Made by a program: the position numbers | Shown: positions 48,601-54,600 of the stretch, piece by piece | Layout of the letters: every line of letters starts with the position of its first letter | Position numbering within the stretch: the stretch's first letter is position 1 | From: a virus | Lineage: Duplodnaviria > Heunggongvirae > Uroviricota > Caudoviricetes | Direction: 5' to 3' (one strand) | DNA length: 64,000 nt | Virus record (IMG/VR): IMGVR_UViG_651053023_000001 | Location: 39,131 to 103,130 of that record

Positions 48601-51600
48601 ACAGAGCACTGGAACGAGTTTAACCTTGCCTGTGACACTGATGCTCCCATCACTCCAGTTATTGATATGGTGCGCCAGTTGTCCGGCATTTACACCCTCT
48701 GGTTTGTAACCGGGCGCTGTGAGATAGCCAGGGATAAAACACGAGCCTGGTTGCGTAAGCACGTAACAAATGGGGCGGAGCCTTTGCTATCTATGCGTCC
48801 TGCCACCGATGACAGAAATGACGGTCCAGCAAAGATTGATCTCCTGAAGAAAATTGGTCTAAGTAAAATTGCGTTCGCGCTGGAAGATAAGATTGAAGTG
48901 GCGCGTGTTTTCAGGAGTCAAGGCGTACTTACGTTAATGGTCAGGGAGTATGAAAACGCGCTTCTCCATCAACAATAATTGCTCTAATAAATCTTGATTT
49001 TTAAAACAGAGAAAGTGAAAATAAAAACATGCCGTAAGGCGCGGCATGTATCCAATCAATCACAGGAGCTGAAAATATGAACACGGCATTCAAAATCATT
49101 ATGGCCGCGATCTATTTCTGGCTGTTCTCTATCACTTTTGGCGGCATCGTCGCGCATGGGTAAGGGGGATGCATGAAAGGCGAAGTGAAAGAGCGCGGCA
49201 TGATTTTCAACGATGAGATGGTCCGAGCCATCCTCGAAGGAAGGAAAACGCAGACGCGGCGGATAATGAAAAATCAGCCTGCGGAAGTTGGTCCAGAAGC
49301 ACCAGTGATGGTTAGGGAAATTGGTGCAGGTTTTCAGTGGTACGGGGCTGATGGTGTAAGCAGTGTTTTCAATTGCCCCTTTGGTATCGTCGGCGATCGA
49401 ATTTGGGTTCGTGAAACATGGGCGATATTAGGCAATGAGGATGGTTGCAGTGTGGACTGGAACGACAACCTTTGTCGTGGCGATGAGAAGAACGCAGCAA
49501 GGATTTATCGGGCCAGTTGCGAGCAAAAACCTGGTGATTACGGCTTATGGTCGATACCCGATGATGCCGACTGGAAACCTCACACTGTGAATGAAAAGTT
49601 TGATGGTGGGTGGCGTCCATCAATTCACATGCCGCGATGGGCATCACGCATTCTGTTGGAAATTACCAACGTGCGCGTTGAACGGTTGAACGATATCAGC
49701 GAATGCGATGCAAGGGCTGAGGGCGTTCCGCCTGCTGGAAGTTTGCTTCCTGATCACCCGGGAACATTCCTTACTCCCAAGGGGGATTTCGCAATGGCCA
49801 AGGTTGCGTTCCAGCGCCTGTGGGAATCCATCTATGGTGAAGAAAGCTGGAACGCTAATCCCTGGGTGTGGGTAATCGAGTTTAGGCGCATTCAGGAATA
49901 AACCGTGAGTATGCATCAAATCGTCAGTTTTTCAGGTGGACGAGCATCAGCCTGTCTCGTTCATCTGTTCGAATAGGTAGTGGCATGACAATCGTAAAAA
50001 CCCATACCGGCACCGTGATCACCAAAGACGGTCCGCAGGTAAAAAAACTGCACCAAACAGAGCGGATGTGGGTCGTCGGCAAAAATGAGTTTTACCACAA
50101 AGATACCGGACGCCGCCACTTTGCAGAAAATACGCGCCGTCGACTGCTGTTAGACACCATCAAGCCTATCGAGGTGAAGCATGTTTAAACAGAACGAAAA
50201 AGCTATCGCTCAAATTGCTGATTATATCCCGCGTGCGTGCCGGGGTATGCAGTTGCAGGAAGCCAAAGCGCGCCTGGAGAAAAAAATTGCGCTCTATATT
50301 GATGACGGCTGTGATGCTGCCGTTCTTAACGCGGCGTTCGCACCAGCTCTTAACAGTCATACTCGGGAGTCTTTTTTTTCGTGCATCGAAGCGCAACTCC
50401 GCAAAGGAGGCAGCCAGTGAGCAAAATTAATTACCGGGCACTGCGTGAGATAGCAAAACAGGCAACACAGGGCGAATGGGTCGCATTTATTTCGCCGGGT
50501 ACTGGTACGTATGCGGTGCATACGCCCGGTGATAAACGATGTGAAGATGTTATCAAATGGACCGGCTTTGATGGGCTGAAAAACGCAGAGAACAACGCTC
50601 GTTATGTTGCCGCATTCAACCCAAAGGTTGCACTGGCGCTACTTGGTGAAATTAAGCGCCTGGAGGACACAAATATTGATGCTATGTGCCGAATAGCACC
50701 GCTTGAGACTAAGCTCGCGGCGCTGGTGGCAGAGAACGCCGGGCTGAAACACGCAATGGCCGTAACTCTTGAGCATGTGTCGGTCACGGATGCAGGGCAG
50801 GCTGGTGTTGCTGCAATGATTATCAACGATGCCCTACACCACAGCGAAACTCCAGCTACCGATGCTTTTCTGGCTGAAATTCGTGCGGAAGCACGCAACG
50901 AGGGGATTAACTATACCGCCAGCCGTCTTGCTGCTGCGTTCAATCACGGATTTATCAATAAGTCTTTGCGTGAAGTTTTCGACGTTACACGCATGATTTT
51001 GTCAGCGAAAGAAGAGTTGGCTAATGAAGCGCATCCGATTGATGGCCTGTCTGGTGAATATGCGGAGAAATCCCTTGAAGAATGGGCGGAACAGATTCGC
51101 AAAGGAAGCAGCCAGTGAATATCGACACGACAATAACGATCGATACGCTCCTAAATACCGGTCTGGCACTTCTCGGTTGGCTTTACATCATGTCCCGTAC
51201 ATGGCGATGGCTGGGTTCCATTTTCCTAAAACAGTGGAAAAAACGGCGCAAACAGGAACTACGCCAGAAGGCATTAGAAGCGTTCTATGACGCATTTGAG
51301 CTTAGCCGCATTGAACCAGGTACAACAGCCAGGATAGCGACAAAAGGCGACCTGATGATAGTGATGTTCCGACAGGAGAGAGCAGAGAAAGGGGAATCAG
51401 CATGAAATTTTCCAAATTTTCTGAGTTGGTGAATCGTATTTTGTCCAACAACCACAGCCATCGTCGCGATATGGATGTAACAATCGTTGTTCATTCGCCT
51501 GGCAGCATTGGTTCAACACCTTCAGTTGAGGTTCAGTCAATTCACGCTGGTTTTGATTGGGATTCCGGGAAAGTGCTTATTTTCCCATCACAGCCACTGA

Positions 51601-54600
51601 CCACGCTAACACCAGAACAGATTACTGATATCACTGATAGTGTGCGCAAAGGTCAGTCTTGGCACGCATATCAGGAATACAAGAAGCATCAAGAGCAGTT
51701 GGAAAAATTGTCGATTGAACTGGATGCCGCAAAACAGCGCATTGCAGAGCTGGATGGTAATCGCACGGCGCTGGCAGTGGAGAATGCCTCAATGAAGCTG
51801 TTTATCAGGGGCTGTTGCTACGTGTTTGATGGCCAGCAGGATGAAATATCTGATGCGTATATCTGCGCAACAGACGGAGGGATGCCGCAAATTCCAGCCA
51901 CCGACGCTTTCCTGGCTGAAGTTCGGGCGCAGGGGGTGGATGCTGCTATAGAAGCTGCAAAAAATCTGGTGGCCCAAGAATATGAGTATAAGGATTTCAA
52001 AGCGGCGCAGAGTGATTGCTGTATGCACCCTGGTTCAGACCTGGTAGGGAAGGTTGAAATGACTGAGTGGTTAGTTGACTTTTCTGCCCAGCTTCGCAAA
52101 GGAGGCAACCAGTGAGCAAGATTGATTATCAGGCACTGCGTGCTAAGGCAGAAAAAGCAACGTGTGGCGAGTGGTCGCTCGAATATGGAAAGAGCCGATT
52201 TGATGGTGATGATGCGCTAATTCATCGTGAAGTTGCTGGATATATTCCCATTTGCAGAATTGAAGGAGCGCATCCTGAAAGCGGTTTCGATGAAGATTTC
52301 CAAATAGAACAGCAGGCCAATGCTGAATTCATCGCCGCAGCCAATCCAGCTACCGTGACGGCATTACTGGATGAACTGGAAAGAAACCAGCAATACATCA
52401 AACGCCGTGACCAGGAGAACGAGGAAATTGCGCTAACGGTAGGGAGGCTTCGCGTTGAGCTGGAAGGCAAAGACAGCAAAATAGCCAATCTTACCGCCGA
52501 ACGCGATGCTCTTCGTGAAGGTGAGATGGGCGACGCTAGGCATAGCAACACACGGGCCGCAGCTGATATCTACTTCCAACTGGTCGAGGAGTGCGAAATT
52601 CCTGCTGGCGGATCTCTGGTCGAGTACGTTGACGATATGCGCGAGAAGCTGGAAGCCGCAGAGAAGCGCATTGCAGAGTTAGAAAGTGGTTCTCAGGCAC
52701 AAAAGTTAGTTGAAGCAATCATTGTTGCGATAGAAAACGAACAGGAAAGGCTTTTTGATGAAGATTACCTAATGGATTCGAAAGAATGCATTGACGTAAT
52801 TCGTGAAGAAGTAAAGCGATGGAATGATTCCCGTGCCGCTGGCATTCGCATCAACGGAGGTGAGTAGTGCGTGTGGCATGTATCGGCTTGTTACCGTACC
52901 CGACTCGTTTTTGGGCTTCTGCGCTAATTGCAAAGCCACATGTCCTGATGGCTGACAACATCATCCCGGCACCAAAGCGCCGCCATACCGGTATTGCAGC
53001 GGCACGACGAGCAGCAAAGAGACGCAGGAGAGCAAAGCGATGAAAAACCGTAAGGCAAAACGACTTTTTTTACAGCGACCTGTGCGTGTGGTGGAGCTGG
53101 TTATCAGCAACCATAAGATAGCTGTACTCCATCCATTTGGTCAGGTGGCTTTTACCGTAAATCGTAAACCCACCGCGTCACAGAACAGGCGGAAGAAAGG
53201 GTACGCTGTAAGATGAAAAACCGTAAAGCAAAGATTCTGTTAGTTCGTAGAAACGCTCCTGGCGTCTGGCAGTGGGTGAGACTCAGCAACCGACGGATGG
53301 GGTTGATGAAATATTACGGGATGATGGATTGTGGTTTTTGCAAAAAGCCCAGCGCGGCGCAAAACCGCTGGAAAAACCACTTGCGCACTAAAGGAGAGTG
53401 ATATGGCGTTAACACACCGCGAACTCTGTCAGATTGCGTACAAGTTCCTTAAGCGCAACGGGTTCAAGGTTTGTTTTCATGACCGCTTTATAGCTGTAAC
53501 CAGTACCGGAGAACAGCCAGATGCTATGGGATTCAGAAATTCAGCATCATGCCTGATAGAGGCGAAATGTTCTCGTGCTGACTTGTTGGCAGATAGAAAA
53601 AAGCGTTTTCGTAAAAATCCGTCTCTTGGAATGGGCGACTGGCGATTCTTTATTAGTGAGCCGGGAATTATTTCAATTGAGGATTTACCACCTGGCTGGG
53701 GATTACTTCACGTTGTTAACGGAAGAGTACGGAAAGTACATGGGTGGCCCAAGGGTAATTGCTGTTGGGGTAATCCTGACGATAAGCCATTTACTGGAAA
53801 TAAGCAGGTTGAATGCGATTACATGTTATCTGCATTAAGGCGTATGGAGTTGAGAGGGCACCTTAATGAAATATATGACGGTGTAATTGTTAATAAGAAA
53901 GAAGGAAACGCGGCATGACCACTATTGCCAAAGATCGACTACTGACAATCAAGCAGTGGCGCGAAACATACGGACCGGGTAGCAACGTTGTACTGCCAGC
54001 AGAAGAAGCGGAAGAACTGGCACGAATTGCTCTGGCATCGCTGGAAGCAGAGCCTGTTCTGTATCAGTCCTGCACTCGCCCCACTTGGAATAGTGGTGTT
54101 CCGTGGACGGAATGGAAAGAACGAAGTCGTGAGTGCTACGAAGACGATTTGCGCTTTACAGACACGCCTGACCATGCCGGTTGGATATACAAATGTCGAA
54201 AATTATATACCACTCCGCCAGCGCCGATAGCGTTAGAGGCCATCGAAAACGCAATTGAATACATCCGCAGTATCGCTTTTCACATCGATGACGACGATTA
54301 CCACGGTAAACATATTGCGTATTTCATGCGACAAGCATTGGCCTGGCTGGAAGGGCATTCATGCAGCGACGACAGACTGGGTAAGGCCGACAATCAACCC
54401 GCATCTGGTAACCAGGCTGCCGAATCCAATCGCGGTAATGAGTGGACCGGCAATCCTGATATTGATAACGCCATCATCATGCTCGACCGCATAGATACGG
54501 CGGAAAGTTGCGATGATGACCGTATTGAGGCCGTTAAGGCTGTGTTGCGTAGACTGGCAGGCAACTATCCGGATATTCCGGAAAGTTCGGTGCCAGCGCC

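Follow-up and report, generated by a model that had tools for sequence, protein, structure and literature searches.

A short initiation junction as a probable site of cassette exchange in the pmgT operon of a P1-like phage-plasmid

Conserved boundary sequences are said to direct module exchange in lambdoid phages, as reported for HK620 by Clark et al. in 2001. Here we describe a repeated junction sequence, J1, in a 64,000-nucleotide stretch of viral DNA (IMG/VR record IMGVR_UViG_651053023_000001, positions 39,131 to 103,130; hereafter the window), where it lies at three gene boundaries of an array of accessory genes, partly of Ead/Ea22 type, in a P1-like phage-plasmid. On comparative sequence evidence, we give a probability of roughly 0.7 to the reading that J1 has two roles, as a portable junction for translational coupling and as a short patch of homology at which cassettes are exchanged. 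In lambdoid phages, module exchange has been proposed to run through short conserved sequences that flank the modules (PMC2327257, citing Clark 2001; see also PMC3974807), and J1 resembles these linkers in being a short conserved boundary sequence with unrelated genes around it and a proposed target of homologous recombination. It differs from the linkers in that it is found in a P1-like phage-plasmid, occurs three times in one operon, and is resolved to a Shine-Dalgarno (SD)-spacer-GTGA unit inside the upstream reading frame.

The genes joined by J1 have their own parallel in Ea22 of the exo-xis region of lambda and Stx phages, with which they share the Ead_Ea22 signature in the N-terminus and coiled coil, C-terminal domains that vary, and a K/RGE tail at the end of the protein (PMC10834534, PMC7093339); however, the C-terminal modules of the array differ, and the array genes stand in a C1-controlled P1 operon, whereas Ea22 belongs to the pL operon. 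The pro-lysogenic function of lambda Ea22 is known solely through genetics in lambda and Stx phages (PMC7093339). In T4-like phages, PeSL cassettes likewise place a short repeated expression signal between non-essential genes, which are shuffled by recombination between the copies, yet PeSLs are larger intergenic promoter-plus-terminator units, whereas J1 is a ribosome-binding site (RBS) and start within the upstream coding sequence (PMC2839356). The sigma-70 promoter and terminator stem-loop that a PeSL repeat contains are absent from J1, and no promoter-like or terminator-like site is found at any J1 copy. The site of the array is the published variable region 8 (pmgT-humD) of P1-like plasmids, where pmgT is replaced in JL22 by a cluster containing an Ea22-type gene; that study catalogued the variability, and the junction and mechanism are not described in it (PMC9603915). 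PMC9836094 has no content on breakpoints. The linker principle, Ea22 mosaicism and the variability of this P1 region are already published; added here are a base-resolved P1-like example, a motif at which several independent events have occurred, a second class of junction (J2) and an account of the K/RGE tail.

The J1 junction

Five closely packed + strand genes, g1 to g5, span 50181-52867 of the window. Within them CGCAAAGGARGCARCCAGTGA occurs three times (50400, 51098 and 52095), against a chance expectation of 0.01, and CGCAAAGGAGGCAGCCAGTGA is found on the + strand at 50400-50420, 51098-51118 and 52095-52115 with 0, 1 and 1 mismatches, respectively; at up to three mismatches the 64-kb window holds no further copy. 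The three-way repeat comprises 27 nt at 85-89% identity, in three direct copies spaced 698 and 997 nt apart:

50394..50420 (core 50400-50420), + strand: J1 copy 1; SD AAAGGAGG, spacer CAGCCA; GTG of g2 overlaps TGA of g1
51092..51118 (core 51098-51118), + strand: J1 copy 2; GGA AGC variant; GTG of g3 overlaps TGA of g2
52089..52115 (core 52095-52115), + strand: J1 copy 3; GTG of g5 overlaps TGA of g4

The 27-nt consensus is CAGCTT CGC AAA GGA GGC AAC CAG TGA, and in the upstream frame J1 reads CGC AAA GGA GGC A(G/A)C CAG TGA. It holds a near-perfect SD sequence, AAAGGAGG, followed after a 6-nt spacer by a GTG start that shares bases with the TGA stop (GTGA). All three copies have the anatomy of a translationally coupled pair, with the GTGA overlap and GGAGG 6 nt ahead of the GTG, and RefSeq/PGAP annotation of sister plasmids places identical GTG starts at J1. 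A reading of the window from its sequence alone (the sequence-only reading) had proposed a repeated junction containing the GTG start of the next gene, and this part is borne out. It had also named similarity confined to the SD and start codon as grounds for giving up the idea. The three-way similarity covers the SD, spacer and start/stop plus about 10 more bases, and so extends beyond the SD and start, though not by much; between copies 1 and 3 it reaches 89 nt at 78% because each continues into an Ead N-terminus. Other details of that reading have to be amended. Rather than four consecutive genes with an RKGG tail, only g1, g2 and g4 end in (Q/E)(L/I)RKG(G/S)(S/N)Q, with g3 interrupting the series, and the 'gagcaa'/Ead start expected at each copy is missing from copy 2, which leads into a DUF4752 gene (VNIDTT...).

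The remaining gene boundaries of the operon overlap as well (ATGA, TAGTG, TGATATG), each differing in sequence, which argues that coupling or initiation does not need the specific bases of J1. An RNA element at J1 was considered and rejected, as Rfam gives no match in 48500-56000 at E <= 1 and the three junctions fold no better than shuffled sequences (z = -0.43, +0.84 and -0.78). A 5-bp hairpin over the SD (GCUUC/GAGGC) can form in 52 of 77 contexts and depends on the common Q/E-L codons; its gain in energy is small (-5.8 vs -4.95 kcal/mol), and the hairpin is not kept in alternative contexts.

Reassortment and breakpoints at J1

Comparison of the window with eight sister P1-like plasmids places breakpoints exactly at J1. 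Collinearity is lost at 52115 in six of the eight (at 52119 in L001) and at 50424 in three, and is regained at 52346. A 645-bp phrog_2457 gene stands behind J1 copy 1 in L160 and L164 and behind copy 3 in L001, while a DUF7739 gene stands behind copy 3 in five sisters. Each sister plasmid has two or three J1 copies, and the P1 reference has none in this region. In one sister, L163 (NZ_CP048611.1, 2800-2835), a deletion fuses a shortened ASCH-like gene to the right half of J1 (...CAGGGGGCAACCAGTGAGCAAAAT), with g0, the gene ahead of g1, and g1 itself both gone; it looks like a microhomology event, not a J1-by-J1 exchange.

The right boundary of the inserted cassettes is the conserved Ead 5' segment. 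This segment is also one of three intragenic islands (the Ead 5' end, the PATDAFLAEVRA motif and the Ead central segment) at which, together with J1, the ends of similarity to other phages cluster; 22 ends of high-scoring segment pairs (HSPs) fall at 51110-51119, in J1 copy 2. The islands are as follows:

50847..50887, + strand: PATDAFLAEIRA/PATDAFLAEVRA-type island in g2, 85% identical to 51889-51929; HSP ends cluster
51889..51929, + strand: PATDAFLAEVRA island in g4, counterpart of 50847-50887; HSP ends cluster
52112..52174, + strand: Ead 5' segment (VSKIDYQALR...GEW), counterpart of 50417-50479; right-hand homology patch for cassettes behind J1
52346..52470, + strand: Ead central island (NPATVTALLDELERNQQYIKRRDQENE), where sister collinearity resumes; densest HSP ends

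Beyond the sister plasmids, exact J1 is present on more than 120 viral contigs. When 200 nt on each side of 140 unique junctions were clustered, 25 upstream and 29 downstream families, unrelated to one another, appeared in 89 combinations, with all four combinations present for 89 family quadruples; the partners that J1 joins differ from genome to genome. In 444 pairs a common upstream sequence is followed by unrelated downstream sequence; identity stops 0-4 nt past the TGA in 264 of these and 25-29 nt past it, where the conserved Ead 5' segment ends, in a further 111. In the reverse arrangement (238 pairs, same downstream and unrelated upstream), 205 lose identity no more than 9 nt left of J1. 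The variants of the first codon (CGC, CGT and AGC) track the upstream and not the downstream family, pointing to crossovers inside J1. In a sample that was not chosen on the motif, comprising 80 loci picked by protein similarity to g5 (Ead), exact J1 precedes the gene in 36 and J1 with up to two mismatches in 46, and the right half, GGAGGCAACCAGTGA, is often kept where the left half differs. Segments of the array are 92-96% identical at the DNA level to differing lambdoid phages, including Stx phages, HK620, HK140 and HK106, and the hkaH/hkaG boundary of HK620 (pL operon) matches 52088-52677 of the window at 94.9%, spanning J1 copy 3. With sister breakpoints on J1, one cassette behind two of its copies, and 25 by 29 families in 89 combinations, the proposal that the junction reassorts genes as in lambdoid ea/Ea22 regions is well supported.

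These observations suggest the following mechanism. The C1-repressed pmgT operon carries a string of packed accessory genes of the lambdoid ea/exo-xis type, in which J1, at three gene boundaries, would couple translation of the downstream gene to that of the upstream one. The 21-27 bases of J1, presumably common by descent to many unrelated genes of temperate phages of E. coli, Shigella and Salmonella, would double as a short homology patch: a crossover in J1 on the left and another on the right, in a further conserved island that is mostly the 5' end or the central segment of Ead, would insert, delete or replace whole genes while frame and coupling are kept. We infer homologous recombination, probably by phage single-strand-annealing recombinases working on about 30 bp. 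As phage annealing recombinases are active on stretches of about 30 bp and also on sequences that have diverged (PMC3945230, PMC2327257), recombination of this kind at J1 is plausible.

Several points weigh against this mechanism. All the evidence is comparative and concerns historical joints only, and the samples selected on the motif are biased toward J1-containing contexts; in the Ead-selected sample, 34 of the 80 genes have no preceding J1 at up to two mismatches. At 21-27 bp, the core homology does not exceed the minimum of about 30 bp quoted for Red-beta (PMC3945230). The microhomology deletion in L163 runs into J1 and is clearly not J1-mediated, and P1 lacks the entire array via a different joint. 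Selection for an efficient initiation region may also explain part of the conservation of J1.

If that last point were the whole story, J1 would be conserved solely as an efficient translation-initiation region, and the mosaic joints at gene boundaries would stem from illegitimate recombination at random, after which selection kept those with intact genes (the Hendrix/Juhala view). J1 is indeed essentially an RBS and a start codon, illegitimate events do occur in the region (the L163 deletion and the pmgT fusion of P1), and in published surveys only about 30% of mosaics had homology at their flanks (PMC3945230). However, quite different sequences serve the other boundaries of the operon, and conservation in J1 takes in the spacer and the bases ahead of the SD as well. 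Moreover, random joining would not yield one 21-mer that links unrelated partners on both sides in so many pairings, or sister-plasmid breakpoints that are base-exact at J1. We therefore regard initiation alone as an improbable account of the junction.

Conserved tails, mosaic genes and the remaining alternatives

The conservation of J1 lies at the DNA level. Codon use was compared by scanning viral contigs with a J1 pattern degenerate at the protein level. Synonymous sites proved near-invariant, with lysine encoded by AAA in all matches, the first glycine by GGA in about 98% and the second by GGC in about 96%, GGA being a rare glycine codon, whereas the amino acids themselves do undergo replacement in the tail (G to S, S to N, R to S). 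The RKGG(S/N)Q tail is best read, on this codon evidence, as a by-product of J1 DNA being translated. In pairwise comparison, column identity is down to background past about -18 and past +21, or past about +65 where an Ead gene lies downstream, so that, as in the linkers, a short boundary sequence is conserved between two unrelated flanks. Phage and plasmid matches to J1 come from Escherichia, Shigella and Salmonella, and when one genome per species was scanned, the exact motif turned up only in an Escherichia sp. and two metagenome bins (the latter possibly by chance or contamination); the taxonomic range of J1 is narrow.

A second junction class is present further downstream:

53390..53406, + strand: J2 (AAAGGAGAGTGATATGG); ...KGE*, one base, then ATG

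Across the window and many related loci, J2 has 66 unique contexts that join 26 upstream tails to 14 downstream heads, and it appears to behave like J1, as a portable SD-bearing junction. The K/RGE tail reported for Ea22 proteins, the significance of which was called unknown (PMC7093339), is probably explained by J2.

The opposite view of the tails, that the peptide (Q/E)(L/I)RKGG(S/N)Q has a function of its own, for instance in marking proteins for degradation or in interactions, and that the protein sequence is what is conserved, could draw on the many proteins that end in it and on the comparable K/RGE tail of Ea22 proteins (PMC7093339). It is very unlikely, as synonymous sites, including the rare GGA, are near-invariant while amino-acid replacements are tolerated; the tail sits on unrelated proteins, whereas relatives bear unrelated tails; and the KGE tail, too, falls on a junction with an SD, namely J2.

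The genes of the array, with the one that precedes it, are as follows (lengths in amino acids, aa):

49985..50188, + strand: g0, 67 aa, phrog_1226; 8-nt overlap with g1
50181..50420, + strand: g1, 79 aa, phrog_1344, no Pfam match; C-terminal end ...EAQLRKGGSQ*
50417..51118, + strand: g2, 233 aa, Ead/Ea22-like, PF13935 at 93.3 bits; C-terminal end ...EQIRKGSSQ*
51115..51405, + strand: g3, 96 aa, DUF4752 (PF15944) at 143.8 bits; C-terminal end ...EKGESA*
51402..52115, + strand: g4, 237 aa, mosaic Ead relative; C-terminal end ...AQLRKGGNQ*
52112..52867, + strand: g5, 251 aa, Ead/Ea22-like, PF13935 at 99.8 bits; C-terminal end ...IRINGGE*

The Pfam gathering cut-off is 27 bits for both PF13935 and PF15944, and PF13935 is passed by g2 and g5 only; g1, g3 and g4 do not match it. 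The description of the locus as an Ead/Ea22 array therefore applies to g2 and g5 and not to g1, g3 or g4, the last of which has no Pfam match and is linked to Ead only via phrog_368 (residues 17-237). In architecture, g2 combines an Ead N-terminus, a coiled coil and a PATDAFLAEIRA-type C-terminal module and matches phrog_368 over its full length, while g4 has a distinct N-terminus (phrog_6026), a coiled coil and a PATDAFLAEVRAQG C-terminal module. The common N-terminus that had been proposed, SKI(N/D)Y..ALR..GEW, is present in g2 and g5 and in no other array gene; the common C-terminal module, PATDAFLAE(I/V)RA ... RKG, is present in g2 and g4, with g1 sharing only its last ~8 codons. The stop of g3 overlaps the start of g4 as ATGA, without J1 at the 3' end of g3, and the stop of g5 overlaps the next GTG start by 1 nt.

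A sequence search of g2, g4 and g5 against all PDB chains gave best E values of 0.064, 0.014 and 0.27, all to unrelated proteins, and at the sequence level none of the three showed homology to the solved C-terminal domain of lambda Ea22. A defence or anti-defence role was also considered and was rejected, as neither PADLOC nor NCBIfam gave a match for eight of the proteins encoded in the operon. Downstream of g5 lie two adjacent small paralogous genes (53040-53216 and 53213-53401), both starting MKNRKAK, with ATGA overlaps with their neighbours and a 21-nt repeat common to their starts.

The proteins g2, g4 and g5 are only 23-31% identical to each other (27% for g4 against the C-terminal half of g2), and their phrog_368 matches cover different parts; this marks them as one superfamily whose members were assembled differently, not as recent paralogs. 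It appears that whole genes are shuffled by J1, whereas chimeric proteins are made at the intragenic islands, in agreement with the description of Ea22 proteins as mosaic (PMC10834534). The notion of mosaic paralogs survives in its first half: the genes are mosaic, but made at the islands and not at J1, and are not recent paralogs, given the low protein identity and the 92-96% DNA identity to different phages. Tandem duplication and divergence in place, with J1 as a relic of the duplicated unit, would fit the three direct copies and the phrog_368 match of all three proteins; it is highly improbable, since outside the short islands the proteins are so far apart, each segment resembles a different lambdoid phage at 92-96% DNA identity, and g1 and g3 are unrelated to the other array genes. 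A dedicated site-specific or cassette-mobilising system with J1 as its target (integron-like or homing-like), suggested by the cassette-like behaviour and by the same gene standing at two J1 copies, is the least probable account: no recombinase or endonuclease gene accompanies the cassettes among the neighbouring genes of the window or the eight sister loci, J1 has no inverted repeat or significant fold and thus neither the imperfect inverted-repeat site nor the integrase of an integron, and the right boundaries lie in coding homology (the Ead 5' end), not at a second site.

Operon context and significance

The window is from a P1-like phage-plasmid, with 97-99% identity to P1 on either side of the array, which lies between pap and hot/humD/phd-doc of the P1 backbone, the location of variable region 8; in the sister plasmids phd/doc, humD and hot are found downstream. 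The operon is delimited by the following features:

48978..48994, + strand: C1-repressor operator OpmgT (Op88), 99% identical to the annotated P1 region; PpmgT promoters overlap just downstream
49173..49901, + strand: first operon gene, 242 aa, ASCH-domain in sister annotation; corresponds to the 5' part of P1 pmgT
55475..55504, + strand: intrinsic-terminator-like hairpin, 11-bp stem followed by a T run; the first strong one and the probable operon end

On the + strand after PpmgT, no promoter-like site or strong terminator is found before 55475, and together with the conserved C1 operator this places the array within one C1-repressed operon. In P1 (NC_005856, 84488-85417), the 5' part of pmgT matches the ASCH-like gene of the window up to 49867 and its 3' part matches a 338-aa gene from about 54556; the reference pmgT appears to be a fusion, and the lack of the whole 4.7-kb array in P1 looks like a deletion. 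Between the first operon gene and g0, 49907-49975 retains a fragment from the start of a PAPS-reductase gene (5' end, VSMHQIVSFSGGRAS...), a gene that is intact (873 nt) at the same position in L002, L160, L162 and L164, the break falling at 49968-49973. Upstream of the operon, at the start of pap, the window has a 4.9-kb insertion relative to P1 (43626-48495), in which two direct copies of an IS3-family insertion sequence (IS; 43592-44889 and 47242-48455) flank the heat-stable enterotoxin gene sta1/estA (45314-45547; ...NTFYCCELCCNPACAGCY) and IS66 and IS21 fragments. A toxin gene of enterotoxigenic Escherichia coli (ETEC) is thus carried by this P1-like phage-plasmid, and the IS3-flanked sta1/estA unit is 99.5% identical on larger non-P1 plasmids of pig E. 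coli.

An earlier survey found no recent exchange between the lambda-like and the P1-P2-Mu groups (PMC3945230), with which the 92-96% DNA identity to lambdoid genes across 50181-54064 of a P1-like plasmid contrasts. Whether phage mosaics arise by homologous exchange at short linkers or by random joining and selection is a long-standing question. The present locus offers a clean, base-resolved case for the linker route, with several events within one lineage at a single 21-mer, and although a specialist would not find this surprising, J1 provides a defined, mutable sequence for asking whether linker identity controls cassette exchange. It also offers a simple account of the conserved C-terminal tails of Ea22-type proteins.

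More tentatively, J1 and J2 could make up a small set of standard in-frame adaptors, retained for allowing lambdoid prophages and P1-like phage-plasmids to trade accessory genes with translational coupling intact; we consider this possible but doubtful. If true, the J1 and J2 adaptors would be the translational counterpart of the PeSL cassettes of T4-like phages, and conserved C-terminal tails such as the K/RGE of Ea22 would be DNA-level signals, not protein motifs.

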